64,000 bases of DNA from Alistipes sp. (GCA_017416915.1 JAFQAN010000036.1:11334-75333), one strand, 5' to 3'; shown: positions 8,738 to 61,867, numbered from the stretch's first letter. A program made the numbers and translations. The notes: generated by a model from the letters alone, not told the origin.

Positions 8738-9342
8738 GGGACTTTGAGACTACGAGACGACGGGACTACGGGACCACGAGACCCCAGAAAAACACAGGCG
8801 TTCTCAGCCGTTCCCAGCCGTTCCCAGCCGTACGAGGCAGTGCGCTATCACCACGCTCCCAAGCGAGATGAATTTTTGTTAGAAGGGGTTAGATGTGGTG
8901 CTATCCCGAAAGATGGCTGGATGGGGGTTTACTTGGGCGTACATCCCCATTCAGACAGATGAGGGTAGTGCCGCAGATGACCCCTTATCACAAAAATTGC
9001 TTGGCGTCAGAAGGGCGCCGAGTGCTACGCTCGACAAAAGATGCCGCCGATGGACATTCTCTCTCTCCCTCTCCCGCGCACGAATTTAGTGTCAGAAGTT
9101 GTAAGATGTGGTGCATCACAAAAGAGAACCCCGCGGGATAGTACTATGTAGTACAGCCCACGGGATTCTACTTTTTGGGATGTGCCGCAGATTGCAGCTT
9201 ATCACACTAAATGACATTTTTGATTAGAGGGCTGCTTATACAACGCTCGACAAAAGATGCCGCCGATGGGTAGTACTTGCGCGTACGTCCCATTGGCGGC
9301 ATCTTTGTTAGCGGCAGTAGAAGTCTGCCCTATGATTGAAAA
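8738..9342 (+). repeat. Mosaic repeat locus 2: 8-mer/core/10-mer unit plus four tandem hairpin modules
   Basis: Core at 8787-8799. Hairpins at 8871-8998, 8999-9057 (left half only), 9084-9212 and 9216-9343. Lies between convergent GH13 and tnaA. Confidence 0.9.
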
Positions 9343-10716
9343 TTATAGGCGCTCGAGCTTAACAGTAAAGTGACGCATCAACTCGGTCTCCCATACAATC
9401 TTCACACCACGTGTAATCTCGTGACGACGATCATATACGTTCTTCAACGCTGCGGCGATAACGTCCATATGGTTGTTGGTGTATGAACGACGTGCGATGC
9501 ACAAGCGCAACAAGTCGAGACCACCAAAACGGTTCTCACGGGTTACGGGGTCGCGGTCAGCGAGGATGTAGCCAATCTCGCAGCCACGTACACCTGCCTC
9601 CAAGTAAAGCTCAATAGCGAGGGTCTGTGCGGGGAACTCCTCCTTAGGAATGTTGCTAAGCACCTTGTCGGCATCTACGAAGATGGCGTGGCCACCTACG
9701 GGACGCTGGTAAGGAATACCGTACTCGTCGAGCTTAGCTGCGAGGTACTGCACCTGCTTGATACGTGTCTCGATAGTGGGAAGCTCGGTGTTCTCGTCCA
9801 AGCCTACTGCCAAAGCTGCCATATCGCGACCGTTCATACCACCATAGGTAAGGAAGCCCTCGAAGGGGATACAGAAGCGCTTAGCACCCTCGTACCAATC
9901 CTCGTGGCGTGTAGCGATGAAGCCACCCATATTTACCAAGCCGTCCTTCTTTGACGACATTGTCATACCATCGGCATAAGAGAACATCTCCTTGCAAATC
10001 TCCTTGATGCTCTTATCTGCGTAGCCCTCCTCGCGGGTCTTGATGAAGTATGCGTTCTCAACGAAACGTGCTGAGTCGAATACCACGCGCTTGCCATACT
10101 TGTCGGCGATAGCACGTACCTCACGGAGGTTCTTCATTGATACGGGCTGACCACCTGCGGTGTTGTTGGTAATGGTAACGATGATGAAGGGAATCTTCTC
10201 GGCGTTCTCTGCCAATGCCTTCTCCAACTTAGCGGGATCTACCTCGCCCTTGAAGGGAATCTCGAGCTGAGTATCCTTCGCAGCGTCGATGGTACAGTCC
10301 AAAGCGGTAGCCTTGCGGAACTCGATATGACCCTTAGTGGTGTCGAAGTGCGAGTTGCCAGGGATGATGTCGCCAGCCTTTACAAGGTGTGAGAACAACA
10401 CGTTCTCAGCAGCACGACCCTGGTGAGTAGGGATAACATACTCGAAGCCTGTAATCTTGAAGATAGTCTCTTTAAGCTCGAAGAATGACTTTGAACCAGC
10501 ATACGCCTCGTCGCCAGTCATCATTGCTGCCCACTGACGGTCGCTCATAGCGCCAGTACCCGAGTCGGTAAGGCAGTCGATGTAAACCTGCTCAGACTTC
10601 AAACCGAAGAGGTTGTAGTGTGCCTCTTTGAGCCACTGCTCACGCTCCTCGCGAGTACTCATACGCAAGGGCTCAACCATCTTGATACGGTACGATTCTG
10701 CAAATGGAAGTTTCAT
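9343..10716 (-). CDS. tnaA: Tryptophanase
   Basis: Beta-eliminating lyase with PLP motif MSSKKD. Residues HFDTT, CEIG and RHFT match tryptophanase rather than tyrosine phenol-lyase (FTTT, MERG, RFFT). Confidence 0.88.
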   Translation of the reverse strand: MKLPFAESYRIKMVEPLRMSTREEREQWLKEAHYNLFGLKSEQVYIDCLTDSGTGAMSDRQWAAMMTGDEAYAGSKSFFELKETIFKITGFEYVIPTHQGRAAENVLFSHLVKAGDIIPGNSHFDTTKGHIEFRKATALDCTIDAAKDTQLEIPFKGEVDPAKLEKALAENAEKIPFIIVTITNNTAGGQPVSMKNLREVRAIADKYGKRVVFDSARFVENAYFIKTREEGYADKSIKEICKEMFSYADGMTMSSKKDGLVNMGGFIATRHEDWYEGAKRFCIPFEGFLTYGGMNGRDMAALAVGLDENTELPTIETRIKQVQYLAAKLDEYGIPYQRPVGGHAIFVDADKVLSNIPKEEFPAQTLAIELYLEAGVRGCEIGYILADRDPVTRENRFGGLDLLRLCIARRSYTNNHMDVIAAALKNVYDRRHEITRGVKIVWETELMRHFTVKLERL

Positions 10717-10811
10717 AGTTGTAGTTTTTTTGTTTATTAATAATTTAGTAATTTATTCTTTTTTGATCTCTCTTTGCACCCTCATTCCCCTATTTTATAG
10801 GGTATCTGCGA

Positions 10812-10819
10812 CAAAGGTA
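10812..10819 (-). promoter_or_regulatory. -7 promoter element for tnaA
   Basis: tacctttg on the minus strand, about 95 nt upstream of the ATG. Confidence 0.55.
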
Positions 10820-10910
10820 TGCAAAAATATAGTCAAATGCAAGCCCGCGTCGAAAATATTTTCATTTTCCCTTTTTGGGTTGCAGACGATGCTATTCGTC
10901 GAGTTTAGCT

Positions 10911-11912
10911 TTATTGTTTTTTCACTAACAGTTCCAATATCTGTATGGCGTTAAGTGCTGCACCCTTGCGAATCTGGTCTGCAACGCACCAGAAGGTGAT
11001 GCCGCGCTCGTTTGTGAGGTCCTTGCGCAGACGACCCACATATACGGGGTTGCTGCCCTGAGCGTACAGGGGCATAGGGTAGCGCTTCTCGGCTGGCTCG
11101 TCGATAAGCACGATGCCCTCAGCCTTAGCAAAGGCGTCGCGCACGTCGCTGAGGTTAAGCTCCTCCTCGGTCTCTACCCATATCGCCTCGGAGTGGGCGC
11201 GCATAACGGGAACACGTACACACGTTGCCGAGGTGCGGATGTCGGAGTGCATAATCTTACGTGTCTCGTAGAACATCTTCATCTCCTCCTTGGTGTAGTC
11301 GTTGTCCTGGAATACGTCGATGTGGGGTATGAGGTTATAGGCGAGCTGGTAGGCGAACTTCTCGACCTTAGGCTCACGGCCCTCGACTATGGCGCGGTGC
11401 TGCTCCTCGAACTCCTGCATAGCCGATGCTCCTGCGCCACTTGCCGACTGGTAGGTGGCGACGTGGACGTGCGTGATGTGCGACAGTCGCTCGATAACAC
11501 CCAGAGCCACAACCATCTGTATTGTTGTGCAGTTGGGGTTTGCTATGATGTGGCGCGGTGCATTAAAGGCATCCTCGCCATTGACCTCGGGAACGACCAG
11601 AGGCACGTCCTCGTCCATACGGAAGGCGCTCGAATTATCAATCATAAAGGCACCATACTTGGTGATGGTGTCGGCATACTCCTTCGAGGTTGATGCGCCT
11701 GCCGAGCATAGAGCGACATCTATGTCCTTGAAGTCGTCGTTGTGTTGTAGCTCACGCACGACAATATCCTCGCCACGGAAGCGGTATGTCGTCCCTGCGC
11801 TACGTTTCGAACCGAAGAGGCGTAGCTCCTCGATAGGCATCGGATGTGATTCCAATATTGAGAGAAACTCCTGTCCCACTGCGCCACTTGCGCCAACAAT
11901 TGCAATCTTCAT
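10911..11912 (-). CDS. asd: Aspartate-semialdehyde dehydrogenase
   Basis: [49 protein letters not shown]. Confidence 0.97.
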
Positions 11913-12093
11913 ATCTCTAATATTTTAATGGTTAAACACTTCGTTTTTTATATGCTCCTTAGTGAGCCTAAAACTACATTTTTATTCTTTTATTCTTTAT
12001 TCGACCGTGGATGTCTTCTCATTCGCCCGTTATTCGCCCGCGGATGTCTGCGAGGTTGGCAAAATTGCACCTTTGCCAACCGCACACCCTCTG

Positions 12094-14535: not shown

Positions 14536-14604
14536 ATTGTTTGGTTTTTATTTCGTTGCGTTGTTAAATGTTGCCTAACTCTCCTCTACGCTTAAAAATC
14601 ATCG

Positions 14605-18032: not shown

Positions 18033-18105
18033 AGCCTTGAGGGGGACTCGAACCCCCGACCCCTTCATTACGAATGAAGTGCTCTACCGACTGAGCTATT
18101 AAGGC
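18033..18105 (-). tRNA. trnT: tRNA-Thr(CGT)
   Basis: GCCTTAATAGCTCAGTCGGTAGAGC-A-CTTCA-TTCGTAA-TGAAG-GGGTC-GGGGG-TTCGAGT-CCCCC-TCAAGGC-T cloverleaf; CCA not encoded. Confidence 0.95.
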
Positions 18106-21566: not shown

Positions 21567-22877
21567 ATGGCATTATTCAAGGTTAAGGGTGGTTACCGTC
21601 TCAAAGGAGAGATTGTACCTCAGGGTGCTAAAAATGAGGCACTTCAAATAATATGTGCTACGCTGCTCACATCGGAGCGCGTGGTACTGCACAACGTACC
21701 TATCATCGCCGATGTTATGCAGCTGCTCGACCTGCTCTCGGCGATGGGTGTCAAGGTGGAGCGCCTGGGCGAGGATAGCTTTGCTATCACTGCCGCAGAG
21801 GTAAACCTCGACTATCTGCGTAGCGCCGACTATCACAAGCGTTGCCGCCGTCTGCGCGGCTCGGTGATGATGATAGGTCCGCTCTTGGCGCGCTATGGTG
21901 TGGGCTTTATGCCCAAGCCTGGTGGCGATAAGATTGGCCGCCGCAGGTTAGACACCCACTTTCTCGGCTTCCAGAAGCTCGGCGCGACGTTCAACTTCGA
22001 CCTCAGCGACGAGTTCTACACCGTTGAGGCTGAGCGCTTGAAGGGTACATATATGCTCCTCGACGAGGCGTCAGTAACGGGTACGGCAAATATCGTTATG
22101 GCGGCGGTGCTTGCCGAGGGTCGCACCACAATATACAATGCGGCGTGTGAGCCATACCTGCAACAGCTCTGCAAGATGCTCAACCGTATGGGCGCCCGCA
22201 TATCGGGCATCGCCTCTAACCTGCTCACCATCGACGGCGTGGAGTCGCTCGGCGGCACCGAACACACTATGCTGCCCGATATGATTGAGGTGGGTAGCTT
22301 TATCGGTATGGCGGCGATGACACGCTCGGAGCTGACCATCAAGGATGTGTCGTACGACAACCTCGGCATCATACCTCAGCAGTTTGCACGTATGGGCATA
22401 CGCTTTGAGCAGCGCGGCGACGACATCTACATCCCCGAGCAGGGCAATTACAGCATCGAGAGCTTTATCGATGGCTCTATTATGACCATCGCCGATGCTC
22501 CGTGGCCAGGACTTACGCCCGACCTGCTCTCGATATTCCTTGTGGTGGCAACACAGGCGAAGGGTTCGGTGTTGATACACCAAAAGATGTTTGAGAGCCG
22601 CCTCTTCTTTGTCGATAAGCTTATAGATATGGGTGCGCAGATTATCCTCTGCGACCCGCACCGCGCTACGGTGATAGGTCTCGACCACCGTCTGCCGCTA
22701 CGTGCTGCAAATATGACCTCGCCCGATATTCGTGCAGGCGTGGCACTGCTCATTGCGGCGATGAGTGCCGAGGGTACTTCGACAATACAGAATATAGAGC
22801 AGATAGACCGTGGCTATCGTGCGATAGATACACGTCTCAATGCGTTGGGAGCGCATATTATGCGTCTCGACGAGTAA
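21567..22877 (+). CDS. murA: UDP-N-acetylglucosamine 1-carboxyvinyltransferase
   Basis: GAKNEALQI, PGGDKIGRR (Cys-to-Asp variant), PWPGLTPDL, SPDIRAG, IDRGY. Confidence 0.96.
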   Translation: MALFKVKGGYRLKGEIVPQGAKNEALQIICATLLTSERVVLHNVPIIADVMQLLDLLSAMGVKVERLGEDSFAITAAEVNLDYLRSADYHKRCRRLRGSVMMIGPLLARYGVGFMPKPGGDKIGRRRLDTHFLGFQKLGATFNFDLSDEFYTVEAERLKGTYMLLDEASVTGTANIVMAAVLAEGRTTIYNAACEPYLQQLCKMLNRMGARISGIASNLLTIDGVESLGGTEHTMLPDMIEVGSFIGMAAMTRSELTIKDVSYDNLGIIPQQFARMGIRFEQRGDDIYIPEQGNYSIESFIDGSIMTIADAPWPGLTPDLLSIFLVVATQAKGSVLIHQKMFESRLFFVDKLIDMGAQIILCDPHRATVIGLDHRLPLRAANMTSPDIRAGVALLIAAMSAEGTSTIQNIEQIDRGYRAIDTRLNALGAHIMRLDE

Positions 22878-23128
22878 ATTTGTTGTGATAAGGGGTCATC
22901 TACTGCCGCTAACGAATTATCTCGCCAATGGGCAGTACGTTCAAGTACAGCCCATCGGCTCGAAATTCGCCGAGCGTTGTATCTGACGCCCTTCTGACAA
23001 CAAATTGCCTTGCACTGCTGAGAACGCCTGAGAAAGACTGAGAAAGACTGAGAACGCCTGTGTTTTTCAGTGGACTTAGGGTATCTCGCAGTCCCGTGGT
23101 CTCGTGGTCCCGTAGTCTCGCAGTCCTG
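22877..23128 (-). repeat. Mosaic repeat locus 4 (inverted): full hairpin 22877-23006, 10-mers, core, 8-mers
   Basis: aatttgttgtgataag...cttctgacaacaaatt; inverted core at 23056-23068. Confidence 0.92.
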
Positions 23129-26812: not shown

Positions 26813-27049
26813 GGGAATTTAGAGAATTTAGAGAGGTTAGGGAGCGCACTGCCTCGCACGACTGGGAACGACTGAGAATGCCTGGGAATGCCTGTGTTTT
26901 TCTGGGGTCCCGTGGTCTCGCAGTCTCGTGGTCTCGTGGTCCCGCAGTGCCGCCGATAAAGAGATTGGGCTGGATGGATAGTACTTGACGTACATTCCAT
27001 TCAGCCCAATGATTGAGGCGGCGCTGATGCGCCGCTATCACAACAAATT
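26813..27049. repeat. Mosaic repeat locus 5: 9-mers, inverted 10-mer/core/8-mer unit, hairpin lacking its left terminus
   Basis: Inverted core at 26890-26902; hairpin 26946-27049 ends ctatcacaacaaat. Confidence 0.88.
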
Positions 27050-27050: not shown

Positions 27051-27584
27051 TTATTCTGCAAATATAGCCGCAAAATTAGGATCATCGGCAACCTTCATCA
27101 TCGCCTCCATCATCTCCTGCTCATACTCAGCCATGATATTGTCAGCAACCTGCTGATCTCTCTCGTCCAAAGCGTCGTACCAAGAGTTGCACTCCTCAAA
27201 AGTTGCGGCAAATGCCTCAGCATCGCCATTGTCAATGGCTTCGAGCATCTGCATAGCGTAGTTGTCAGCTATCTCGCCAGTGGTGAAGCCTCCGCAGCCG
27301 AGGTCATCCTCGTACTCCTCCTCAAACTCGCCTGCGAGCTGAGCCTCATACTCCTCGATAGCTGCATCAGCCTTAGCCTTATCCTCCTCGCTAAGACCGT
27401 TATACCAAGTCTCAATCTCGGTGAGGAGCTTCAATGCTGCCTCAGCGTCATCGCCCTCAGAAACCTTCTCCATCTGCTCGTAGTAAGCCTTTACCTGCTC
27501 CTCTACGGTAAGCTCCTTCTTCTTCTCGCCACCGCAAGCAACCAGCATTGCAGCAGCCACCATTATCGCTAAAAGTCTTTTCAT
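27051..27584 (-). CDS. Acidic lipoprotein with two copies of a ~50-aa helical domain
   Basis: Lipobox LVAC-GGEKK; internal repeat GD.EA.....E...WY..L.E.D...AD.....Y. Confidence 0.75.
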   Translation of the reverse strand: MKRLLAIMVAAAMLVACGGEKKKELTVEEQVKAYYEQMEKVSEGDDAEAALKLLTEIETWYNGLSEEDKAKADAAIEEYEAQLAGEFEEEYEDDLGCGGFTTGEIADNYAMQMLEAIDNGDAEAFAATFEECNSWYDALDERDQQVADNIMAEYEQEMMEAMMKVADDPNFAAIFAE

Positions 27585-29657: not shown

Positions 29658-29669
29658 GAGAGACGATTG

Positions 29670-30124
29670 AGCGAGAGCGGCTGAGAGGCGCGCGATTGAC
29701 TGAGAAAGAGTGGGTGGCGCGCAATTGACTGAGAACGCCTGAGAAAGACTGAGAAAGACTGGGAAAGACTGAGAATGACTGGGTGGCGCGCCAACCGAGA
29801 CAACGAGACGACGGGACGACGGGACTACGGGACTACGGGACTGCGAGACTGCGAGACCACGGGACGACGAGACCACGAGACCACGAGACCACGAGACCGC
29901 AATACCCCAAAAAAACACAGTCGTTCTCAGGCATTCTCAGGCATTCTCAGTCGTGCGTGGCCGTGCGTGGCTGTACGTGGCAGCTTGGCGTCAGAGTGGT
30001 GTAGATGTGTTCTATCGCAAAAGAGAGTGCCGTGGGATAGTACTAAAACGTACAGCCCACGGCACTCTACTTTTTGGGATAGGACGCAGATGCGCCGCTA
30101 TCACGTCAAGCTATCACGCCAAGC
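29670..30124 (+). repeat. Mosaic repeat locus 6: ggcgcgc caps, inverted 10-mers, 8-mer array, core, 10-mers, full hairpin 29983-30111 and a duplicated right terminus
   Basis: Core at 29909-29922; ...ctatcacgtcaag-ctatcacgccaagc. Confidence 0.92.
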
Positions 30125-30127: not shown

Positions 30128-30421
30128 TTACATTGATGCCTCAATATTCCACACAAACGCCCTCGACCCCTGCTGCTTGGTCGTCGAATCTATCTCGCGC
30201 AACGCATCCATAAGCACGGGAATCTTCTCATCCTCAACAATAGCGAGTATCGATGAGTTCATCGAGGGCCACGCGTGAGTGCCATAGTGAGGCTCTCCAT
30301 CATAGGTGCCGCGTCCCTCGGTCAGCGCCCAGCGTGTGAAGCCACGCACACCATTCTCGTCGAGCATACGGTCGATACGGTCGGTAAGCGCCTGGTTGTA
30401 TGATACAAAAAATGCTTTCAT
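30128..30421 (-). CDS. PG0541-family small transporter-associated protein (P-II-like)
   Basis: RGFTRW...GRG..GEPHYGTHAWPSMNS; last gene of the RND operon. Confidence 0.75.
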   Translation of the reverse strand: MKAFFVSYNQALTDRIDRMLDENGVRGFTRWALTEGRGTYDGEPHYGTHAWPSMNSSILAIVEDEKIPVLMDALREIDSTTKQQGSRAFVWNIEASM

Positions 30422-36879: not shown

Positions 36880-37434
36880 GCTGGGTGGCGCGCGATTGAC
36901 TGGGAATGGCTGAGTGGGCGCGCGATTGACTGAGAATGACTGAGAACGACTGAGAACGACTGGGTGGCGCGCCGACGGGACTACGGGACTACGGGACTGC
37001 GAGACTACGAGACAACGAGACTGCGAGACTGCGGGACAACGAGACTACGAGACTACGAGACTACGAGACTGCGGGACCACGGGACCACGGGATACCCTAA
37101 AAAACACAGGCGTTCTCAGGCATTCTCAGGCGTTCTCAGTCGTGCAAGGCAGTACGTGGCTGCGCGAGGCAGCTTGGCGTCAGAGTGGTGCAGTAGTACC
37201 GCCGATAAAGAGATTGGGCTGGATGGATAGTACTGTGCGTACATTCCATTCAGCCCAATGATTGAGGCGGCGCTGATGCGCCGCTATCACGCCAAGCAAC
37301 GACAAGGGCTTGGTGTGAGAAGGGCGCCGAGTGCTACACTCGGCAAAAATGCCGTCGATGGGTAGTACTAAGACGTACGTCCCATTGACGGCATTTTTTG
37401 TTAGGGGACGCAATCGACCCCTTATCACGCCAAG
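36880..37434 (+). repeat. Mosaic repeat locus 7: caps, inverted 10-mers, long 8-mer array, core, 10-mers, two full hairpins (37172-37297, 37308-37434)
   Basis: Core at 37099-37111; the second hairpin ends 1 nt before the POT transporter stop codon. Confidence 0.93.
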
Positions 37435-37435: not shown

Positions 37436-38986
37436 CTATGCGTTGGTTACACGCTCCAACCACTTAACCATACCAAGCATTACGCCCATAGAGATAAGGC
37501 AGACTGCGAGGAATACGGTCCAGCAGATCCAGATAGGCACTGCGTTATACATAAGCGGACCAATCCAGAGAAGGAGGTTACCCACCGCCGTAGCACCAAG
37601 CCACAAGCCCTGGCAGAGACCGAGCATATGCTTAGGAGCCACCTTCGACACAAACGACAGACCGAGCGGCGAGATAAACAACTCGGCAACAGTAAGGAAG
37701 AAGTAGAGTACGAAGAGTACCCACGGTCCTGCAAGCTCAACACCATTTGCACGTGCATCACTGGCTGAGGGGTAACCCTCAACAAACGAGAAGCCTGCAA
37801 GGAAGAGGTAAGCCATACCTGCGATAGCCATACCGATAGCAATCTTTCGGGGCGTAGAGATATAGATATTACGCTTAGCCAACGCGCCGAAGATATACAT
37901 AATCACGGGGGTAAGGACAATCACATAGAAGGGGTTAAGGGCCTGCCATACCTCGGGAGCTACGCTATCCGACTTCACAAAGTCGCGTGCGAACATCGAG
38001 AGCGAAGTACCGTTCTGGTGGAATGCAAACCAGAAGAAGATAGCGATGCCGAGTACTGCAAAGAGTGCATAGAGACGCTGCTTAATCTCCTTAGCTGCTG
38101 CCTTACGCTCCTCGGGAGTGTAGGTAACATTTGCAGCTGCCACCTTCTTAGCGGGAGTCGGGAACTTCTTACGAGTAGAGATAAAGATGGTAAGCGAGAT
38201 AAGCATTGCAGCCACCGAAGCGATGAACGAGTAGTGGATACCCTCGTTGAAAATCTGCAAGTAGTCATTGCTGAACGTTGCAATATCGGCGATAGGAGCG
38301 TCGCTGAGCGTAGCGCCATTAGCCGTCTCAACAAACTTGTCGAAGTTTGCCATCTCAGCGCCATTAGCATTGAAGTCGTGGCAGAGTGCGGGGAGCTGTG
38401 CGTTGTAGGTCATATCGTGAGCCTTCAACCACCACTCACGCAACAGCGGAGCAACAAACGGAGCGATGACACCACCAATGTTGATAAATACGTAGAAAAT
38501 CTGGAAACCAGAGTCGCGCTTCGACTTAGCCTCTTTCAGAGCAGCCTCGCCCTTCTTGGCTGCCTCAGCTTCGAGGTCATCGTACATCTGACCTACGATA
38601 GCCTGCAAGTTACCCTTGAACAGACCGTTACCGAAGGCTATCACAAAGAGTGCAAAGCAGGTAAGGGGCAACAACCAGCCCTGATTACCATCTGTTGCAA
38701 GAATAGGAATAGACAGCACCACATAACCTGCCGCCATAACCATAAGACCTGCCATAATAGTACCCTTGTAGTTCTGGGTCTTATCGGCAATCATACCGCC
38801 GACAAGTGCCAAGATGTAGATACCTGCATAGAAGAATGAGTAAACCAACGAGCTGGTCTCCTCGCTCAAACCGAACTTCGAGCAGAGGAACAGCACGAGG
38901 ACTGCATTCATAATGTAATAGCCGAAACGCTCACCCATATTACTGAGTGCCGCAGCTAAAAGACCTTTGGGGTGTCCTTTGAACAT
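37436..38986 (-). CDS. POT/PTR family di/tripeptide:H+ symporter
   Basis: MGERFGYY, GNGLFKGN, FYVFINIG, AELFISPLGLS. Confidence 0.93.
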   Translation of the reverse strand: MFKGHPKGLLAAALSNMGERFGYYIMNAVLVLFLCSKFGLSEETSSLVYSFFYAGIYILALVGGMIADKTQNYKGTIMAGLMVMAAGYVVLSIPILATDGNQGWLLPLTCFALFVIAFGNGLFKGNLQAIVGQMYDDLEAEAAKKGEAALKEAKSKRDSGFQIFYVFINIGGVIAPFVAPLLREWWLKAHDMTYNAQLPALCHDFNANGAEMANFDKFVETANGATLSDAPIADIATFSNDYLQIFNEGIHYSFIASVAAMLISLTIFISTRKKFPTPAKKVAAANVTYTPEERKAAAKEIKQRLYALFAVLGIAIFFWFAFHQNGTSLSMFARDFVKSDSVAPEVWQALNPFYVIVLTPVIMYIFGALAKRNIYISTPRKIAIGMAIAGMAYLFLAGFSFVEGYPSASDARANGVELAGPWVLFVLYFFLTVAELFISPLGLSFVSKVAPKHMLGLCQGLWLGATAVGNLLLWIGPLMYNAVPIWICWTVFLAVCLISMGVMLGMVKWLERVTNA

Positions 38987-45387: not shown

Positions 45388-46671
45388 ATGAAAAAGATTC
45401 AACTTATAATAGCTCGCGAGTTCGGCGAGCGCGCTCGCAAGAAGTCGTTTATTATCACGACCTTGCTGATGCCGATATTGATGATAGGATTGATGATAGC
45501 GCCATCGCTGATGATGCTTATGGATACCGCCGAGCAGAAGCAGGTGGTGGTCATCGACCGCTCGGGCGTTGTTGGCGACAAGCTGCAAAGTGGCGGCGAG
45601 GTGCTATTCTCGGTGCAGAACGACCTCTCGAAGGCGGAGGCGTGTAGCATCTATGGCGAGGATAGCGGCATCTTCGGCATCCTATACATAGGTAGCGAGG
45701 TGGAGCATCGCGACTCGGTGCAGCTTATCACAAACTCATCATCGTCGATGATGTTGGAGGAGAATATCGCCTCGCAAATATCGGCGATAGTCGAGGCGGA
45801 GAAGCTCAAAGCCTACAACATCGATAACCTCGACCAGATACTCGCCTCGGTGGCGACAAATATCGAGCTTAGCACCTTCGAGAACAACGGCACAGGCGAG
45901 GTGGAGACGATGGAGAGTACGTCGTCGGGCATAAACTACATCTTGGGTATGCTGCTCGGTATGCTACTCTATATGATTATCATCATCTACGGACAGATGG
46001 TGCTAACATCGGTTGTCGAGGAGAAGTCGAGCCGCGTCATAGATGTTATGGTAACGAGCTGTACGCCCTTCCAGATTATGATGGGTAAGATTCTCGGCAT
46101 CGCCCTTGTCGCCGTTACGCAGATTGCCATCTGGGCTGTGCTTGTCATCGGCGCGTCGAAGTTCCTTATCCCCGCGCTCTTCTCGCCAGAGGTGGCGGCA
46201 ACAAACGATATGATGATGCAGGCGCTGATGGGTACCCTCGGCAATACGTCATATATTGCGGGTCTGTTTGGCTACCTGCTGCTCTTCATCCTCGGCGGCT
46301 TCCTGCTCTACGCATCGCTCTACGCTGCGGCAGGCTCGGCGGTCGATTCGGTGCAGGATGGTCAGCAGTTCAACACGATAATTATGATGCCTATAATCTT
46401 GGCACTTATCGTGATGATGTCGGTCTTCAACGACCCCAACTCGTCGGTGGCGTTCTGGTTCTCAATAATACCCTTTACCTCGCCAATAGTGATGATAGCG
46501 CGCATACCATTTGGCATCCCCACGTGGGAGGTTGTGGTGTCGTTGGTGCTGCTATATGCCACCTTCCTCTTTGTGGCGTGGTTTGCCGCCAAGATATATA
46601 GAATAGGTATCTTTATGCACGGCAAGCGTCCCTCGTGGCGCGAGCTGTGGCAGTGGACCAAGATGAAGTAG
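45388..46671 (+). CDS. ABC-2 type transporter permease (NatB-like)
   Basis: VVEEKSSRVIDVM, IPFTSPIVMIARI; multiple TM segments. Confidence 0.92.
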   Translation: MKKIQLIIAREFGERARKKSFIITTLLMPILMIGLMIAPSLMMLMDTAEQKQVVVIDRSGVVGDKLQSGGEVLFSVQNDLSKAEACSIYGEDSGIFGILYIGSEVEHRDSVQLITNSSSSMMLEENIASQISAIVEAEKLKAYNIDNLDQILASVATNIELSTFENNGTGEVETMESTSSGINYILGMLLGMLLYMIIIIYGQMVLTSVVEEKSSRVIDVMVTSCTPFQIMMGKILGIALVAVTQIAIWAVLVIGASKFLIPALFSPEVAATNDMMMQALMGTLGNTSYIAGLFGYLLLFILGGFLLYASLYAAAGSAVDSVQDGQQFNTIIMMPIILALIVMMSVFNDPNSSVAFWFSIIPFTSPIVMIARIPFGIPTWEVVVSLVLLYATFLFVAWFAAKIYRIGIFMHGKRPSWRELWQWTKMK

Positions 46672-46689
46672 CAGAGGCGCAGGCGTTGG

Positions 46690-46862
46690 TTGTTGTCAGA
46701 AGACGAGAGATGTGGCACATCGCCAAAGAATAAAATTTGTTGTCAGAAGGCATTAGATACAACGCTCGGTGAATTTGTCGGCGATGGGCTGTACTAAAAC
46801 GTACTGCCCATTGCCGACACAATTCATTAGCGGCAGTAGATGATGCCTTATCACAACAAATT
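46690..46862 (+). repeat. Mosaic repeat locus 10: truncated left half plus full hairpin 46734-46862, without microsatellite arms
   Basis: aatttgttgtcagaaggcat...atgccttatcacaacaaatt; overlaps the kdsC stop codon. Confidence 0.9.
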
Positions 46863-47397
46863 AACGGGAGGGCACTCCAAGCACCCCCTTCATATTCTTC
46901 GCCCAGTTGCCTTGCGCTCGTAACACCTGCTCTACAATGTCGCGCACAGCACCCTTGCCGCCATTATACTCCGACACATAGCGCGACGCCTCGATAACCT
47001 CCATACAGGCGTCGGCAGGACATACAGGGATGCCCACAAGACGCATACACTCCAAATCGGGGATGTCGTCGCCCATATAGATAACATTCTCCGAATTGAG
47101 GTTGTTGGCAGCCATAAACTCATTGATAGCGGCAACCTTATCCATACAGTTAAGATACATGTCCTTGATGCCGAGCATCTCCAAGCGGCGGCGTAGCATC
47201 TCGCCACGACCTCCCGAGATGATACAAATCTTGTAACCCTCACGAAGTGCGTATGCCAAGGCGTAACCATCCTTGGCGTAGTAGAGACGTATAAAGTCGC
47301 CATCGGGCGTAGGGATGATGCTACCATCGGTCATCACCCCATCCACGTCGAAGACAAAGGCCTCGACGCGGGCTATATCTTCTTTGAAGTTTCCCAT
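46861..47397 (-). CDS. kdsC: 3-deoxy-D-manno-octulosonate 8-phosphate phosphatase (HAD IIIA)
   Basis: FDVDGVMTDG, KDGYA, YMGDDIPD, GGKGAVR. Confidence 0.9.
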   Translation of the reverse strand: MGNFKEDIARVEAFVFDVDGVMTDGSIIPTPDGDFIRLYYAKDGYALAYALREGYKICIISGGRGEMLRRRLEMLGIKDMYLNCMDKVAAINEFMAANNLNSENVIYMGDDIPDLECMRLVGIPVCPADACMEVIEASRYVSEYNGGKGAVRDIVEQVLRAQGNWAKNMKGVLGVPSR

Positions 47398-53492: not shown

Positions 53493-53507
53493 AATAAGGC
53501 ACTTATA

Positions 53508-54413: not shown

Positions 54414-54421
54414 AATATTTG

Positions 54422-54429: not shown

Positions 54430-54498
54430 TGGTAAAGATACGAATTTTTACATAATATCTGCCCCTTCGAGGGTAAAAAAGTTATACGACGACCAACG

Positions 54499-55347: not shown

Positions 55348-55392
55348 GGAGCGATGATAATAGATTAATAATCAACGAATAAATCTCTTCAA

Positions 55393-55995: not shown

Positions 55996-57988
55996 ACCCT
56001 ACGCTGTCGCGCAGCCCTCCCGTAGCATCCACGGCACGTACCGTGGCCCGCTGATGGACAACAACGCTATCGGCAACATATTGACACTGGGCAACCTCTC
56101 TCACGGCAACCGTGTCGCCCTCGACAATGAGCGTGGGCGTACCTGTCGAACAATAGACCTTTATATTTTGTAGCGTATCACGCCTCTCGGTCCAGCGGCG
56201 CTCGGCGATATGTAGCGTACCTCTACGCCTATTCCACATAGCGCGATAGAGGTAGTAGGCATCCTTCGCCGCGCGGTGGTCAAAGTCCATAAGTCCCGAG
56301 TGGTCAATGCCGTAGCTATTGCGTGTGGTGGCAAAGTCATACATATTCTCCAACCACACGCCCCAAAATATGCCCGACGAGGGGAGTATAGCGGCATAGC
56401 GCTCGTGCATAAGTGTTTGGCGGCGCTCCGAGAGGCGGTGTGTGCCACGCTCGGCACGGCGCACCTCGTCGTCCTGATGCGACATCATACCCTGCTCGCC
56501 ATACGACACGGCGTAGCGCAACGCCTCCCACGCCCTATTTGACGAGAGCTGGTCGCACCACACTTCAACATCGTCGAACTGCCCCTTCATCCAGCCCGCA
56601 TCCTGACGAAAGACTATAAGGTCGGTAACGAAGTTTATCGCACCATTACTATTGCTGCACCCCACCGTAGGGCGTGAGGCATCGAGGCTGTGTGCCAACG
56701 CGTCCAACTCCTCGATAAAGGGTACCACATCGTCGCCGCGCTGCCACGCCAGCGAGAAGAGACCCCACATCGCCACCGACGGGTGGTTAAAATTCTGTGC
56801 TACAATCTCTTGAAGTTGTTGCTTTGCGTTGTCCTGCAACGCCACCGTAGGCAGATAGCCCACATCGGCAAAGGCGTAGCGTGAGCGCGTCAGAGGCAGG
56901 TCTATCCACGCCAAAATGCCTCGTCTGTCGCACTCGTCGTAGAGCATATCGGCGTGCGGACCTCCCAACGAGCGGATGGCATTGGCACCCAAATCTTCAA
57001 TTTGGTCGATATCCGAGAGAATCTGCTCGCGGCTCATTGCACTACCCGATGCGTGGCAGTCGTGAGCGAGGTTTACGCCCTGCACAAAGAGGGGTTTATC
57101 GTTGATGAGCAGCTTGTTATCTTCGCTAATAGAGATTTTGCGAATACCCGTCTTAACGCTTACGAAGTCCATAGGCGACTCCTCATCGCCCAACGACACC
57201 TCGACCGTGTAGAGCGAGGGCGAGGCGGGACTCCACAGCTCGGGATAGTTAATCTCGAAGGGTATTTCGACCGTGCGTCCCGACTCAATCTTTGTGGCAC
57301 GTACGCTACGACGGTCCACCTCATAGCCGTCTGGGGCGACGATACGCATATTTACCGCCACATTATCCGACGTGGGCGACGACAGATGCACACGCACAAC
57401 GCCCGACGCTTGGTTAGCATCGACCTTCTGCTGCACGACAAAGAGACCGTCGGAGCCATAATAGAGGGGCGTAACGATACTCTTGCCCGTAACCAACAGC
57501 TCTACATCGCGGTAGATGCCGCCATATAGGTTTTGGTCCGTCGAGAGGGGTAGCACGTCGTTGCGATAGCTATTCGACACCTCGACAAGCAGCTGATTGT
57601 TAGCGCCATAGTTTACACGGTGTGTGATTTCGAGCGTGAAGGCGGTATATCCTCCACGATGCTCGCCCACGTGGCGGCCATTGACAAAGACATCGGCTAC
57701 GCTCTGCACACCGCCAAAGCGCAAGAAGAGGCGCTTGCCGCTCCACTCCGCAGGGATATACAACTCGCGCAGATAGCGCGCCGTGGTGCGGCGGTAGTCG
57801 TGGTCGGCGACGGCAACATCGTCATTCCAGGTATGGGGCAGCTCGACATAGCGCGCATTGTCGCTGTCGTGTTCCGAGGCGTAGAAAAACATCCAATCAT
57901 CGTTGAGCGAATAGCTACTGCGTAGCGGCTCAACAGCCTGTGCCATACAGGTAAAAAAGATGGCTATTATGGTTAAAACTCTCTTCAT
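55964..57988 (-). CDS. Glycoside hydrolase family 2 homologue, possibly catalytically inactive
   Basis: LPHTWN, FLRFGGVQSVADVFVNG..GEHRGGYTAF, YGGIYRDV, NHPSVAMWG. The usual NE and EYG glutamate motifs are not present. Confidence 0.85.
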   Translation of the reverse strand: MKRVLTIIAIFFTCMAQAVEPLRSSYSLNDDWMFFYASEHDSDNARYVELPHTWNDDVAVADHDYRRTTARYLRELYIPAEWSGKRLFLRFGGVQSVADVFVNGRHVGEHRGGYTAFTLEITHRVNYGANNQLLVEVSNSYRNDVLPLSTDQNLYGGIYRDVELLVTGKSIVTPLYYGSDGLFVVQQKVDANQASGVVRVHLSSPTSDNVAVNMRIVAPDGYEVDRRSVRATKIESGRTVEIPFEINYPELWSPASPSLYTVEVSLGDEESPMDFVSVKTGIRKISISEDNKLLINDKPLFVQGVNLAHDCHASGSAMSREQILSDIDQIEDLGANAIRSLGGPHADMLYDECDRRGILAWIDLPLTRSRYAFADVGYLPTVALQDNAKQQLQEIVAQNFNHPSVAMWGLFSLAWQRGDDVVPFIEELDALAHSLDASRPTVGCSNSNGAINFVTDLIVFRQDAGWMKGQFDDVEVWCDQLSSNRAWEALRYAVSYGEQGMMSHQDDEVRRAERGTHRLSERRQTLMHERYAAILPSSGIFWGVWLENMYDFATTRNSYGIDHSGLMDFDHRAAKDAYYLYRAMWNRRRGTLHIAERRWTERRDTLQNIKVYCSTGTPTLIVEGDTVAVREVAQCQYVADSVVVHQRATVRAVDATGGLRDSVGFTTHSLKARR

Positions 57989-58006
57989 ATTGCAACATTA
58001 TCGCCA

Positions 58007-58014
58007 CAAAGATA
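58007..58014 (-). promoter_or_regulatory. -7 promoter element for the GH2 gene
   Basis: tatctttg on the minus strand. Confidence 0.55.
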
Positions 58015-58096
58015 CAAATAAACGAAAAAAATTACTAACTTCGTGCGAAATATTGGGTTGAGAAAACCTCAAAAAAGTAACTTAACGACACCGATT

Positions 58097-58762
58097 ATGA
58101 TTGATATTTTAGTTGCTATTGCCGCCGTTTGGGCTTTTATCTTGGGTCTGCGCCGCGGTATGATTGTTCAACTCTGCCACCTTGTAGGACTCTACGTCGC
58201 TATACTCATAGCACCCACCATCGCCTCGCCCATAGGCTCGCTACTTATGGACGACCCAGGCAAGGCTTATATCGCAGGCTTCGGCATTGTGGTTGCCGTG
58301 GTGCTTCTGGTGGTGTGGTTAGTAGCGCCGCTACTGCGCTCGATAGTCATCTGGCGCCCTGCACGGCAGTTAGACAGCCTACTGGGCGGTGTGCTTAACC
58401 TCGCCACAATGGTACTCGTTACCGCCGTACTCTTCTCGGTATTCGACCGTGCCAACATCAGCGAGAAGCCGCGTTGGGAGAGGATTGGCGACCTTGTGGC
58501 AGAGTGCGAGAGCGACGAAGAGCTACGCGAAAAGATACTATCGCTGGAAAACGGACAGGGCGAGATGCGCGAATACTTCTATCCGCGCCTCGTAGAGTAC
58601 GAGACACTCGACGCCTCGGCGACATTCACCCCTCTGGCACACCTTGGCGATAGGCTATGTCCCACGCTCGGCAAGATTGACGAGCTTATACAGCAGGAGG
58701 CAGCCAACGCCGTACTCGGCGGTGATGTTATTGTGTGGGGCAAGGAGTTTTCACAGCAATAA
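58097..58762 (+). CDS. CvpA family membrane protein
   Basis: GLRRGMI.QL, LDSLLGGVL; four TM segments. Confidence 0.75.
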   Translation: MIDILVAIAAVWAFILGLRRGMIVQLCHLVGLYVAILIAPTIASPIGSLLMDDPGKAYIAGFGIVVAVVLLVVWLVAPLLRSIVIWRPARQLDSLLGGVLNLATMVLVTAVLFSVFDRANISEKPRWERIGDLVAECESDEELREKILSLENGQGEMREYFYPRLVEYETLDASATFTPLAHLGDRLCPTLGKIDELIQQEAANAVLGGDVIVWGKEFSQQ

Positions 58763-58774
58763 ACCTATTTTAGA

Positions 58775-59698
58775 ATGGAGCAACTACTCGAAGGCACGGT
58801 AATCAGCTCTACGGGCAGCTGGTACGAAGTCGAGACTGCTGAGGGCAGGCTCAACTGCCGCATACGTGGACGTCTGAGGCTCAAAGGCATACGTTCGACA
58901 AACCCCGTCGTCGTGGGCGACCGCGTAAGGGTCGAACCCGACAACGACAGTAGCGCAATAGTGGAGATTCTACCACGCCGCAACTACGTCATACGCCGCG
59001 CCTCGAACCTCTCGAAGGAGTCGCATATCATCGCCGCCAACATCGACCGAGCGCTGCTCATCGTAACGCTGCACTCGCCAGCCACGCCGCGCGAGTTTGT
59101 CGATAGGTTTTTGGTTACGTGCGAGGCATACAAGATACCCGTAACCATCGCCTTGGGCAAGGCAGATACGCTTACGGGCGAGCATCACGACGAGGCGGAG
59201 GAGTTTTGCGCCATATACCGCGATGCGGGTTACGACGTCGTTCGCCTATCCTCGACCACAGGCGAGGGCGTTGAGCATATCGCCTCGATGCTATCGGGGC
59301 GCACAACGCTTGTGGCAGGCAACTCGGGCGTGGGTAAATCGACACTCATAGGCACCATCGCCCCCGACGTAGAGATACGCACGGGCGAAATCTCCGAGAG
59401 CCACCATAAGGGCAAGCACACCACCACATTTTCGACGATGTACCGCATCCACGACGGATATATCATCGACACGCCAGGCATCAAGGGCTTCGGTCTTATC
59501 GACATCGACGACAGGGAGCTATGCCGCTACTTTCCCGAGATGATGCGCCTCGCCCCCGACTGCCGCTTCTACAACTGCACACACACACACGAGCCAGGCT
59601 GCGCCGTGCGTAGCGCCGTAGAGGAGGGTATGGTGGCGTGGTCGCGCTACGAGAGCTACCTGAAAATATTGGACGAAGATGACAAATATCGCAAGTAG
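58775..59698 (+). CDS. rsgA: Ribosome small subunit-dependent GTPase A
   Basis: GNSGVGKSTL, KGKHTTT, DTPGIKGF, CRFYNCTHTHEPGC. Confidence 0.96.
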   Translation: MEQLLEGTVISSTGSWYEVETAEGRLNCRIRGRLRLKGIRSTNPVVVGDRVRVEPDNDSSAIVEILPRRNYVIRRASNLSKESHIIAANIDRALLIVTLHSPATPREFVDRFLVTCEAYKIPVTIALGKADTLTGEHHDEAEEFCAIYRDAGYDVVRLSSTTGEGVEHIASMLSGRTTLVAGNSGVGKSTLIGTIAPDVEIRTGEISESHHKGKHTTTFSTMYRIHDGYIIDTPGIKGFGLIDIDDRELCRYFPEMMRLAPDCRFYNCTHTHEPGCAVRSAVEEGMVAWSRYESYLKILDEDDKYRK

Positions 59699-60401
59699 AT
59701 TACGCACCGAGGAGCATAGCGACGCTTGGTTTCGCGAGCGCCTCGACTATATGACCCAATTTCTCACGGACGAGCGACAGCAGATACTGCGCCGCACCGT
59801 GGCACAGCGCACCCACTACGTGCGCATCCTCACCGAGAATATGTTTCATCCGCAGAATGCCAGCGCCATAATGCGCCACTGCGAGGCCTTCGGCGTGCAG
59901 CAGATACACACCGTCGAGGACCGCTGCCGCTTCGACCCGAGCGTAAACATCGTGCGCGGCACGCAGAAGTGGGTCGATGTGGAGCATCACGCCACCACCG
60001 CCGACGCCCTTGCCGCCCTACGCTCGGAGGGCTACCGCATCGTGGCAACAACACCGCACCGATGCAGCTCTACGCCCGAGACCTTCGACGTTACGAAGGG
60101 TAAGTTTGCCTTAGTCTTCGGCACCGAGCATGCAGGCATCTCGGACGAGGTTATAGCTGCGGCAGACGATTTCTTAATGATTCCGATGTGTGGTATGGTC
60201 GAGAGCCTCAACGTCTCGGCATCTGCCGCTATCCTTATATATATGCTCGCGGAGCGTGTGCGACAAAGTGTCGAGGGGTGGCAGCTCAGCGACGCGGAGC
60301 AGCTGCGACTGCTCACACGCTGGACACTGTCGAGCATCCGCGACTACGAGGGCATACTACGCCGCGCCGAGCAGTGCGGCAAACTGACGGTGGAGCGTTA
60401 G
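59679..60401 (+). CDS. TrmH/SpoU family RNA methyltransferase
   Basis: HPQNASAIMR, VFGTEHAGIS, IPMCGMVESLNVSAS. Confidence 0.9.
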   Translation: MTNIASRLRTEEHSDAWFRERLDYMTQFLTDERQQILRRTVAQRTHYVRILTENMFHPQNASAIMRHCEAFGVQQIHTVEDRCRFDPSVNIVRGTQKWVDVEHHATTADALAALRSEGYRIVATTPHRCSSTPETFDVTKGKFALVFGTEHAGISDEVIAAADDFLMIPMCGMVESLNVSASAAILIYMLAERVRQSVEGWQLSDAEQLRLLTRWTLSSIRDYEGILRRAEQCGKLTVER

Positions 60402-60436
60402 CAGCCGTTAGACATAATACTGTCAATAAAAGAGTT

Positions 60437-61630
60437 ATGATACTTAGAAAACAATTTTTGCAACACGTAGGACAGACCTCGCCGTCGCCTATGCTGATAG
60501 AGGTCGCCCGTGCCGAAGGCTCGTTCTTCTATACGCCCGAGGGCAAGCGCTACTTCGACCTTGTGGCGGGTGTGTCGGTGAGCAACGTAGGACACGGCAA
60601 TAGCGAGGTCATCGCCGCCGTGCAGAAGCAAGCAGCTGACTATATGCACATTATGGTCTATGGCGAGATGGTCGAGCGCCCGCAGGTGGAGTATGCTCGT
60701 CGCATCGCAGAGCTGCTGCCTGGGGCGCTGGACTGCGTCTATTTCGTCAGCTCGGGAGCAGAGGCTGTCGAGGTGGCGCTAAAACTCGCAAAACGCTATA
60801 CGGGACGTACAGAGCTTATCTCTATGCGCCGTGCCTACCACGGCTCGACACACGGTGCGATGTCGATGATGGGCGCCCCCGAAGGCGAGGAGTGGAAGGC
60901 TGCGTTCAGACCTCTGCTGCCCGATACGCGCGCCATCGAATTTAACTCCTTCGACGACCTTCGATATATCACCGAGCGCACGGCAGGAGTGCTTTGCGAG
61001 GTGGTGCAGGGCGAGGCGGGCATACGTCTTCCCAACCCCGAATGGCTGCACGCTCTGCGTGAGCGCTGCTCGGAGGTGGGTGCGCTGCTTATCTTCGACG
61101 AGATACAGACGGGTATGGGTCGCACGGGCGAGATGTTCGCCTCGACGAAGTATGGCGTAACGCCCGATGTGGTCTGCTTGGCAAAGGCTTTTGGTGGCGG
61201 TATGCCCCTCGGCGGCGTAGCGGCAAACAGCAAAATTTTAGACTCTTTTACGAATAACCCTTGCTTGGGTCATATAACGACGTTTGGCGGTCATCCTGTA
61301 TGCTGCGCCGCAGGTCTTGCAGCACTCAACTACCTGATAAATAACAATATCGTCGAGCAAGTCGAGGCTAAGGGCGAGCTGTTTGAAAGACTGCTTGCGG
61401 ACCATCCTCACGTCAAGGAGATTCGTCGCTCGGGACTTTTGATGGCTGTTGAGTTGGGCAGCTCGGAGCGCCTCTACGCGATGATGGATATGTTCAAGGA
61501 GGCGGGTATTATGAGCGACTGGTTTTTGTACTGCGACACGGCATTTAGAATCTCTCCGCCGCTCACAATTTCGGAGGGCGAAATTGAGGAGTGCTGCACG
61601 ATTATTCGCCGCGCACTCGACAGGCTGTAA
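60437..61630 (+). CDS. Class III PLP aminotransferase (ArgD-like)
   Basis: AYHGST, EVVQGEAG, FDEIQTGMGRTG, LAKAFGGG, TTFGGHP; start at MILRK. Confidence 0.9.
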   Translation: MILRKQFLQHVGQTSPSPMLIEVARAEGSFFYTPEGKRYFDLVAGVSVSNVGHGNSEVIAAVQKQAADYMHIMVYGEMVERPQVEYARRIAELLPGALDCVYFVSSGAEAVEVALKLAKRYTGRTELISMRRAYHGSTHGAMSMMGAPEGEEWKAAFRPLLPDTRAIEFNSFDDLRYITERTAGVLCEVVQGEAGIRLPNPEWLHALRERCSEVGALLIFDEIQTGMGRTGEMFASTKYGVTPDVVCLAKAFGGGMPLGGVAANSKILDSFTNNPCLGHITTFGGHPVCCAAGLAALNYLINNNIVEQVEAKGELFERLLADHPHVKEIRRSGLLMAVELGSSERLYAMMDMFKEAGIMSDWFLYCDTAFRISPPLTISEGEIEECCTIIRRALDRL

Positions 61631-61639
61631 AAAGATAGG

Positions 61640-61867
61640 ACGGCGGGACTGCGAGACAACGGGACTACGAGACCCCCGAAAAACACAGGCATTCTCAGGC
61701 GTTCCCAGGCGTTCTCAGCCATTCTCAGTCGTGCGCGGCAGTTTGTTGTGAGAGTGGTGCAGATGTGGTGCATCGCAAAAGAGAGCACCACGGGATAGTA
61801 CCAAAACGTACAGCCCGTGGTGTTTTACTTTTGGGATGTACCGCAGATGCGCCACTATCACAACAAA
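61640..61867 (+). repeat. Mosaic repeat locus 11: 8-mers, core, 10-mers, full hairpin 61742-61867
   Basis: Core at 61678-61690; tttgttgtgagagtgg...ccactatcacaacaaa. Confidence 0.92.

Follow-up and report, generated by a model that had tools for sequence, protein, structure and literature searches.

The ERIC (enterobacterial repetitive intergenic consensus) or IRU (intergenic repeat unit) sequences of Enterobacteriaceae are imperfect palindromes of ∼127 bp that lie in transcribed intergenic regions. Bacterial MITEs (miniature inverted-repeat transposable elements) are derived from insertion sequences (IS); they have inverted repeats at their termini and are flanked by a target-site duplication, which for Correia is TA. 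The Correia/NEMIS repeats affect the transcript ends of the genes that they adjoin. Integron attC sites, which are 60-140 nt long, are recognised as one folded strand. The functions proposed for repetitive extragenic palindromic (REP) elements are termination, the stabilisation of mRNA and the binding of proteins (PMC3733652, PMC2817692, PMC3116915). Here we analysed a stretch of 64,000 nt of Alistipes DNA (C14:11334-75333 of the genome, referred to throughout as the window) and the hairpin repeats that it contains. These repeats are members of an apparently undescribed family of structured palindromes of ∼127 nt, which is confined to Bacteroidales and has undergone great amplification in Alistipes; full-text searching of the literature returned no description of it.

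A profile was built from the nine hairpin modules that a first-pass annotation had listed in the window, and was searched with nhmmer. It recovered all nine, with ends within 1-2 nt of those proposed. The modules align end to end, and each of them forms a single long hairpin with a minimum free energy (MFE) of -57 to -85 kcal/mol (z = -8.1 to -15.6 versus dinucleotide shuffles). The list was nevertheless incomplete, since two partial copies had been overlooked (9000-9058 and 26940-27048), and the module at 22877-23006, although correctly located, lies opposite to the others, its well-folding strand being the minus strand. The profile search detected 191 loci in the genome, a ruminant-gut Alistipes metagenome-assembled genome (MAG; 1.97 Mb, 42 contigs, 52% G+C, 92.8% complete). 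Of these loci 157 are full length. Together the units occupy 22.8 kb (1.16% of the genome) and are grouped into 135 arrays, of which 89 are single units, 39 are pairs and 7 contain three or four units. The arrays are nearly always head-to-tail (one is of mixed orientation) with 2-5 nt between units, and are dispersed over more than 30 contigs, behind housekeeping genes. Many contigs start or end within a unit, indicating that the repeat breaks the assembly. An unrelated repeat starting TATTTGCGTTAGAAATGGATAAAAAGTTTGCCC was also seen at five contig ends (C3:29339, C7:87582, C27:77, C40:7467 and C42:46361) and is probably another multi-copy, assembly-breaking element.

Motifs were counted in 152 distinct full copies of this genome and in 37 copies from ∼15 other Alistipes genomes. 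A unit is 123-131 nt long and has ends of the form [AG][CT]TT... / ...AA[AG][CT]. Inwards from its ends it consists of a variable outer stem of 8-9 bp, an internal loop with a G.A mismatch, a middle stem, a tandem G.A/A.G loop (AGAU/AGAU), one of ∼8 interchangeable inner cassettes and an apex, GUAC-N5/6-GUAC, with a hypervariable loop. The G.A of the internal loop is flanked by A-U pairs and usually accompanied by a C.C. The non-canonical pairs and the apex that had been pointed out in the nine modules recurred in the larger sets. The G.A (5′-NAGA / UAUN-3′, within GTNAGA / TATCAC) was present in 149 of the 152 copies and in 37/37 from other Alistipes, and its adjoining A-U pair in 150/152 and 36/37. 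The C.C beside it occurred in 122/152 (80%; otherwise G-C in 20 and U.C in 4) and 29/37, AGAT facing AGAT in 85/152 (56%) and 29/37, and the GTAC-loop-GTAC apex, with a loop of 5-6 nt, in 141/152 (93%) and 29/37; seven of the 152 copies have a compensated ATAC/GTAT variant of this apex. The apical loop starts with T and ends with C, and took 34 sequences in the 152 copies, its four central bases (T-NNNN-C) being hypervariable (for example at window 8933-8938, 30044-30049 and 37233-37237). Apart from the loop, copies of the same cassette are identical over ∼100 nt, and it is often several loop positions together that differ from copy to copy.

Covariation was analysed in an alignment of 34 non-redundant copies (<90% identical pairwise), using as controls 500 shuffles and registers in which the 3′ partners had been slid by 1-3 columns. 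Standard-paired cells amounted to 91.9%, compared to 74.3% in the shuffles, both-sided changes were found in 25/35 pairs, and the covariation score was 0.487, versus 0.177 in the shuffles and 0.07-0.12 in the slid registers. None of the 500 shuffles reached the observed value on any measure, and several pairs pass through a G-C / G-U / A-U series. The compensatory changes noticed in the first nine modules are thus real. At the murA site, where this genome can be compared with G010 (MurA proteins 95% identical), the two copies share one common cassette and are separated by four fully compensated double substitutions, all of them in the outer and middle stems. Because of these substitutions, and because the same architecture recurs with unrelated stems in other genera, the covariation is not merely a founder effect. 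All in all, the covariation, the conserved non-canonical pairs and the strand-specific fold described below support the proposal of the first-pass annotation that selection acts on the folded single strand.

Stepwise substitution is only part of the picture. The eight main inner cassettes are found in combination with outer stems of three classes (GCTTGGCG, ATTTGTTG and AATTTTTG) and with several middle stems, a single cassette being found with up to five stem combinations, and the outer 5′ and 3′ arms were of matching class in 138/152 copies. Up to 28 copies of one cassette type are near-identical over ∼100 nt, and what distinguishes them is mainly 2-4 positions of the loop, besides the outer and middle stems, which can be swapped. 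Since cassettes and stems recombine while the arm classes remain matched, much of the apparent compensation is an exchange of ready-made complementary arm pairs. This exchange resembles gene conversion, with junctions that fall within the conserved blocks, and not purely stepwise mutation.

The fold is specific to one strand. With RNA parameters, the mean MFE was -73.5 kcal/mol in the orientation in which the family was first read (hereafter the folding strand) and -57.6 kcal/mol for the reverse complement, and the more stable strand was the former in 142 copies and the latter in 10. With DNA parameters the means were -37.4 and -29.3 kcal/mol, and the folding strand was the more stable in 152/152. 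Arm-to-arm alignment gave 761 G.T versus 88 A.C and 715 G.A versus 114 T.C, G.U making up ∼10% of pairs. The same strand won in 37/37 copies from other Alistipes (G.U 187 versus 23) and in 13/13 correctly extracted copies from other Bacteroidales genera. Although G (29.9%) exceeds C (22.6%) in the folding strand, the genomic strand to which it belongs is C-rich, with a negative GC skew. As the G excess of the element opposes the local skew, a replication-linked mutational bias would produce the opposite asymmetry, and was ruled out as its source.

Gene context was obtained with a home-made gene caller (1,494 genes, 86% coding). Arrays were found in 0/167 divergent, 56/159 convergent and 57/1,126 tandem intergenic regions (convergent versus tandem odds ratio 10.2, p = 4e-25), and only two overlap called genes. 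With its 3′ end, the folding strand faces the stop of an opposite-strand gene, and it is antisense to this gene, on which the array is docked. The distance from stop to hairpin has a median of 5 nt, being ≤3 nt in 54/113 arrays and ≤25 nt in 90/113, and on the opposite side of the arrays there is a median of 298 nt of non-coding DNA. A stop codon stands directly before the 7-nt outer-stem core in 37/113 arrays, compared to ∼5 expected. In these fused junctions the last base of the stop is the first base of the stem, with TAG/CTTGG in 19 cases and TAA/TTTGTT in 14. About six open reading frames (ORFs) extend 10-13 nt into the unit and end at its own TGA in GTGATAG (genome C5:137994, C12:16344, C17:108195, C25:14558 and C5:160330), so that the repeat supplies their final three or four codons. 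Stop usage in 1,251 confidently called genes was 57.5% TAA, 38% TAG and 4% TGA; with TGA so rare genome-wide, stop usage is uninformative as a test of element-supplied stops.

Several units are preceded, between the stop and the complete unit, by a 13-14 nt duplicate of their own gene-proximal end (CTTGGCGTGATAG in gene direction; window 30111-30124 and genome C9:9505, C21:23582, C20:162222 and C20:168400). Nested insertion was ruled out as the origin of the 13-nt leader (CTTGGCGTGATAG), because the remainder of the interrupted older copy is absent after the full unit. No target-site duplication was found in the flanks of more than 140 copies, which have a stop codon on one side and, on the distal side, a conserved linker (GCTGTGCGAGGC-A or CCCAAGCGAGAT). 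A TA-targeting, IS630-like insertion was also rejected, since TA stands before the proximal end in about one third to one half of the arrays but the distal end has the linker and not TA.

Array orientation is near-uniform within each contig and tracks the sign of the GC skew (C1 17:0, C17 0:11, C20 1:15, C42 8:0). In C1, the G-rich strand carries rpoB, rpoC and tuf, which confirms the usual leading-strand assignment. Given this assignment and the skew, the folding strand carries the lagging-strand sequence, that is, it lies on the leading-strand template. In the 79 arrays with clear skew the docked gene is on the leading strand 73 times (92%), compared to 54% of all genes (p = 2e-13). Arrays on lagging-strand genes (∼8%) keep their orientation relative to the gene, which indicates that the gene rule is stricter than the replication rule. 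The same contig-wise polarity was observed in two other copy-rich species, G103 and G107 (∼130 copies each).

A covariance model of the family matched 72 of 121 Alistipes genomes, the other 49 having no match. Copy number ranges from 0 to ∼190 across the genus, with 130-190 copies in ruminant-gut species of ∼2 Mb and 11-18 in genomes of 2.7-3.8 Mb. With a broader model, whose sensitivity was limited by the scoring of eight candidates per genome, diverged copies were detected in 10/237 Bacteroidales genera and none in 400 phylum-wide genomes, mostly outside Bacteroidales. The distant copies are ∼120-128 nt long and have the AGA/UAU G.A loop, AGAU/AGAU and the strand asymmetry, with unrelated stem sequences; they also contain an inner motif, GGAGCRUAC-loop-GUAYGUGA, and two more GA/GA loops. 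The family has been kept in Bacteroidales long enough for its sequences to diverge while the architecture was retained. In these genera 8/15 copies lie ≤11 nt from the stop of an antisense gene, and a ninth lies 53 nt away. A U-rich tract follows the hairpin directly, in gene direction, in 5/15 copies (CUGUUUU type, the complement of the core AAAAACACAG that accompanies the hairpins in this genome), and in genera with such a tract the unit looks like an oversized intrinsic terminator. A ∼225-nt tandem repeat made of two diverged units separates a pyrB-like gene from a PBP1A gene in G147, which is from a different family of Bacteroidales (G147:C20:24229-24579). This is apparently a divergent region, and the gene-end rule thus seems looser outside Alistipes.

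In the window, the folding strand is the plus strand except where stated. A four-unit array adjoins tnaA. Its distal unit (8872-8997; nhmmer match C14:20205-20330, fold -67.1 kcal/mol, z -8.5) has the outer stem AATTTTTG/CAAAAATT and is followed by a half unit consisting of the 5′ arm only and then a CT-rich linker (9000-9058; partial nhmmer match, model positions 2-59), by a full unit with outer stem ATTTAGTG/CACTAAAT (9085-9211; fold and nhmmer) and by another full unit (9217-9343; fold and nhmmer) whose last base is within the stop of tnaA, a minus-strand gene (tta 9343-9345). The minus-strand hairpin (22879-23005; nhmmer) begins 1 nt past the murA stop (TAA 22875-22877), and a partial unit (26940-27048; nhmmer, model positions 18-128) lies 2 nt from the stop of a minus-strand gene (27051-27584). 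A full unit (29984-30110; fold) and a 13-nt duplicate of its own gene-proximal end, TATCACGCCAAGC, together span 29984-30124 and precede the stop of a minus-strand ORF (30128-30421). In a two-unit array the distal unit occupies 37173-37296 and the proximal one 37309-37433 (fold and nhmmer for both); the latter has a cassette with an additional side hairpin in the 5′ arm and ends 2 nt from the stop of a minus-strand peptide-transporter gene (37436-38986). The unit at 46736-46860 (fold and nhmmer) is fused to the stop of kdsC (46861-47397, minus strand), at a site that varies between strains. The last unit (61742-61867; fold and nhmmer) is an exception in orientation, being downstream of and sense to an aminotransferase gene (60188-61630) with no abutting antisense gene. 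The neighbours of the modules are ordinary housekeeping genes (tnaA, murA, an RND pump, the peptide transporter and kdsC). Rfam gave nothing at gathering score in the window except a tRNA gene (18033-18105, minus strand), and a permissive Rfam scan of an array returned only a chance match to a plant miRNA precursor (26.8 bits versus a threshold of 150). A GH13-type protein encoded in the window shares 82-88% identity with proteins from gut MAGs of Alistipes that come from goat, yak, deer and buffalo.

The hairpins of this genome are often part of a larger composite. The core AAAAACACAG lies 5′ of the folding strand in 58/135 arrays, at a median distance of 72 nt. It has 76 exact copies in the genome (∼3 expected) and 10 in the window (0.06 expected), where exact matches precede hairpins at 8788-8797 (plus strand), 23058-23067 (minus strand), 29911-29920, 37100-37109 and 61679-61688. 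The order is tandem 8-mers (GGGACNAC/GAGACNAC), core AAAAACACAG, tandem 10-mers (GNTTCTCAGNC), the GTGCGNGGC linker and then the hairpins, and such stretches occupy 8700-8870, 29660-29980, 36880-37170 and 61640-61740 of the window. Farther out there are often inverted 10-mers (CTGAGAANGA) and TGGGTGGCGCGCC, which makes the 10-mer arrays of the two sides complementary. The cores share the replication polarity of the hairpins, 44 to 9. In other species the hairpin occurs alone or beside different short repeats, indicating that the hairpin is the conserved module.

Comparison of orthologous sites revealed turnover of the family. This genome shares the hairpin at the murA stop with G010, G013 and G012, whereas G015 lacks it; at the same place, more distant relatives carry either an ordinary short terminator or nothing. 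The kdsC site (window 46671-46863) was compared in nine metagenome contigs with a KdsC protein identical to that of the window. In one form it consists of a full hairpin plus a remnant, in a 189-nt spacer to the convergent gene. In the other form the first 35 nt of the hairpin are joined to 10-mer/core/8-mer arrays, giving spacers of 279, 293, 326 or 334 nt, and the numbers of 8-mer and 10-mer units vary between strains. Such alternatives among identical proteins indicate that the locus rearranges on the time scale of strain divergence, and it behaves like a variable-number tandem repeat. When strains were searched for empty sites at murA, tnaA, the transporter and a 177-aa gene, the contigs recovered either carried the same allele or were broken.

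The interpretation that we tentatively prefer, at not quite an even chance, is that of a REP/ERIC-like structural repeat of gene ends, under selection on its single-stranded fold; an RNA-level role, a protein partner and a copying mechanism are what we infer beyond the features established here, namely the fold with its covariation and strand asymmetry, the docking on stop codons, the replication polarity, the mosaicism, the turnover between strains, the taxonomic range and the lack of Y1. Transcription from either side would produce a long 3′-end hairpin, which could delimit or insulate neighbouring transcription units through termination, a block to read-through or protection from exonucleases. 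The strong enrichment between convergent genes fits an insulating role. The conserved G.A motifs and the apex would offer a contact surface to a putative protein, and the multiplication, shuffling and turnover of copies might result from a replication-coupled process acting on single strands and from gene conversion among copies, in which a Y1 (RAYT/IS200) transposase would not take part. Several points weigh against this interpretation. That the hairpin exists as RNA is itself inferred, and the better-folding strand is antisense to the docked gene, which is wrong for a simple terminator. The Bacteroidetes -7 motif (TAnnTTTG) is at background on the folding strand, with 7 occurrences versus 29 on the gene strand in 42 tandem contexts. 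This genome has no directly adjacent U-tract in either direction, the T-run being located a median of 72 nt from the hairpin, behind the 10-mer arrays. We found no binding protein and no copying enzyme, and an RNA-level role alone leaves the 92% leading-strand docking unaccounted for. That polarity, like the precision of the junctions, is explained better by a purely selfish, non-autonomous element, copied as single-stranded DNA (ssDNA) at the replication fork by a non-Y1 enzyme for which the conserved fold and the G.A would be the recognition features. Such an element would insert just after the T or TA of TAA/TAG stops, on the lagging-strand template, and any terminator effect would be incidental. 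We regard this alternative as possible, if somewhat unlikely. Replication polarity is a known signature of IS200/IS605 and REP/RAYT systems (PMC6006769), and docking on leading-strand genes in 73/79 arrays, versus 54% of genes, with the same pattern in G103 and G107, is in agreement with it. So are the 19 TAG/CTTGG and 14 TAA/TTTGTT junctions, the six or so ORFs that end at the element's own TGA, the common head-to-tail arrays and the differences in presence at orthologous and strain-level sites, and recent bursts are suggested by the sets of nearly identical copies and by copy numbers that differ widely from species to species. In contrast, the Y1_Tnp domain (PF01797) was found neither in this genome nor in 119/121 Alistipes genomes, copy-rich ones included, in a search that detected it in control genomes. 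Of the two genomes that bear it, G004 had no hairpin match in the genus screen and G106 is copy-rich. A loose regular-expression scan for arm pairs >150 nt apart, intended for an autonomous parent, gave mostly noise and no convincing longer relative, in assemblies of a kind (MAGs) that often lack IS copies. The 6.6-kb stretch between inverted hairpin copies in the low-copy G147, inspected for a cognate enzyme, holds housekeeping genes only. A selfish element is also at odds with the conserved linker in place of a target-site duplication, with a folding strand on the leading-strand template (the active strand of IS608-type elements is on the lagging-strand template) and with the failure to recover a clean empty site with matching flanks. 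Finally, the same cassette is found at murA in four species, which indicates that many copies are old and vertically inherited.

The polarity would likewise be explained if the hairpin were a host DNA site acting in cis, as ssDNA or a cruciform, in replication, repair or chromosome organisation and read by a chromosomal protein, in the manner of BIMEs (bacterial interspersed mosaic elements) that bind gyrase or IHF, or of attC read on one strand by integrase. Among DNA mismatches, G.T and tandem G.A have the highest stability. The asymmetry holds with DNA parameters in 152/152 copies, the replication polarity is strong, the two GTAC palindromes of the apex, with a spacing of roughly one turn of the helix, resemble a protein site, and a hypervariable apical loop on otherwise identical stems fits a loop exposed as ssDNA. 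Stop-codon docking and the fixed gene orientation are left unexplained, however, the gene rule being obeyed also in the ∼8% of arrays on lagging-strand genes; 49/121 Alistipes genomes have no copy, so that the site would be dispensable, and the attC consensus is absent and the copies dispersed. We consider such a site improbable. Least probable of all, and in our view very unlikely, is an account without structural selection, in which arm-to-arm template switching (quasipalindrome correction) and gene conversion maintain the palindrome and the covariation reflects a few founder subfamilies. It draws on the module swapping behind much of the compensation (arms class-matched in 138/152) and on the fact that the cell counts of the covariation table are non-independent events. 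Self-templated correction would nevertheless erase mismatches, yet the G.A is present in 186/189 copies and the tandem G.A persists across genera. G.U exceeds A.C by ∼9 to 1 against the local mutational skew, the same architecture is found in other genera with unrelated stems, and the four double substitutions that separate orthologous murA copies are all fully compensated. A DNA-level host site and structure-blind palindrome maintenance fit less well than the gene-end repeat or the selfish element. We also consider, as an unlikely further possibility, a new class of mobile element that homes to leading-strand stop codons through a replication-coupled single-strand intermediate, with an enzyme unrelated to Y1-HUH. 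If this were true, the enzyme would read the G.A-studded fold, and the element would supply both the stop of the host gene and the structure at its transcript end.

Whichever mechanism applies, more than 1% of the genome of an abundant ruminant-gut Alistipes consists of this repeat, which breaks MAG assemblies and shapes gene 3′ ends and sometimes protein C-termini. Its strain variation beside identical genes makes it a possible strain marker, and its protein partner, if found, could reveal a new nucleic-acid-recognition or transposition system.

The family can be set against each of the known systems in turn. Intrinsic terminators resemble it in being located at gene ends and absent from promoter regions and, for some copies of other genera, in the adjacent U-tract in gene direction; moreover, several relatives that lack the murA hairpin carry an ordinary terminator there instead. 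The Alistipes hairpins differ from terminators in having a ∼60-bp stem with conserved internal loops, instead of 5-15 bp, a more stable fold on the antisense strand and, in this genome, no adjacent U-tract, and in being repeated, mosaic and mobile-like. With integron attC sites they share an imperfect hairpin directly behind an ORF, conserved unpaired bases and an orientation biased relative to replication. The first-pass annotation had likened them to attC and REP substrates, and as a statement of family membership this comparison found no support, for there is no Y1/RAYT gene, the units are ∼127 nt and not 20-40 nt long, R′/R″ boxes are missing and the copies are dispersed. Specifically, the R″/R′ (GTTRRRY) boxes and the attC consensus are absent at the unit ends (intI was not searched for), and the units stand behind housekeeping genes throughout the genome and not in a single cassette array next to an intI gene. 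Correia/NEMIS repeats of Neisseria are, like these units, small non-coding hairpin repeats scattered by genes whose presence differs between strains. Unlike a MITE, the unit consists entirely of a single hairpin and has no target duplication, and a parent IS was not found.

The closest likenesses are with REP and ERIC. As in REP/BIME/REPIN-RAYT systems, the units are high-copy extragenic palindromes at gene 3′ ends, often arrayed and mosaic, and, as in REP/REPIN, an extragenic high copy number (191 units) is combined with selection on the single-strand fold. Unlike REP elements, they are ∼127 nt and not 20-40 nt long and lack the GTAG/CGTC foot tag, their arrays are head-to-tail and not alternating as in BIMEs, they are flush with or fused to the stop codon, and no RAYT/Y1 gene, of the kind that REPs typically flank, accompanies them in this genome or in 119/121 Alistipes genomes. 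They also depart from the IS200/IS605-derived PATE, for which a TnpA(Y1) acts in trans, with no Y1 here and a well-folding strand on the leading-strand and not the lagging-strand template. With ERIC/IRU they have in common nearly the same length, an imperfect palindrome, a copy number that varies among relatives and no known transposase. In contrast, ERIC belongs to a different phylum, shows no recognisable sequence relation by inspection (the units were not aligned to the ERIC consensus) and is without tandem G.A motifs. To our knowledge, neither stop-codon docking, nor a strand-asymmetric fold, nor an orientation that follows replication has been reported for ERIC. Within the Bacteroidetes, a 132-bp palindromic motif, HMP2_4205 (PMC8040213), is a possible relative. 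The Alistipes hairpins would add to the REP, ERIC and Correia repeats of Proteobacteria a Bacteroidales counterpart governed by unusually strict and testable rules: docking on stop codons, a fixed orientation to the gene, a 92% replication polarity and a G.A fold on one strand.

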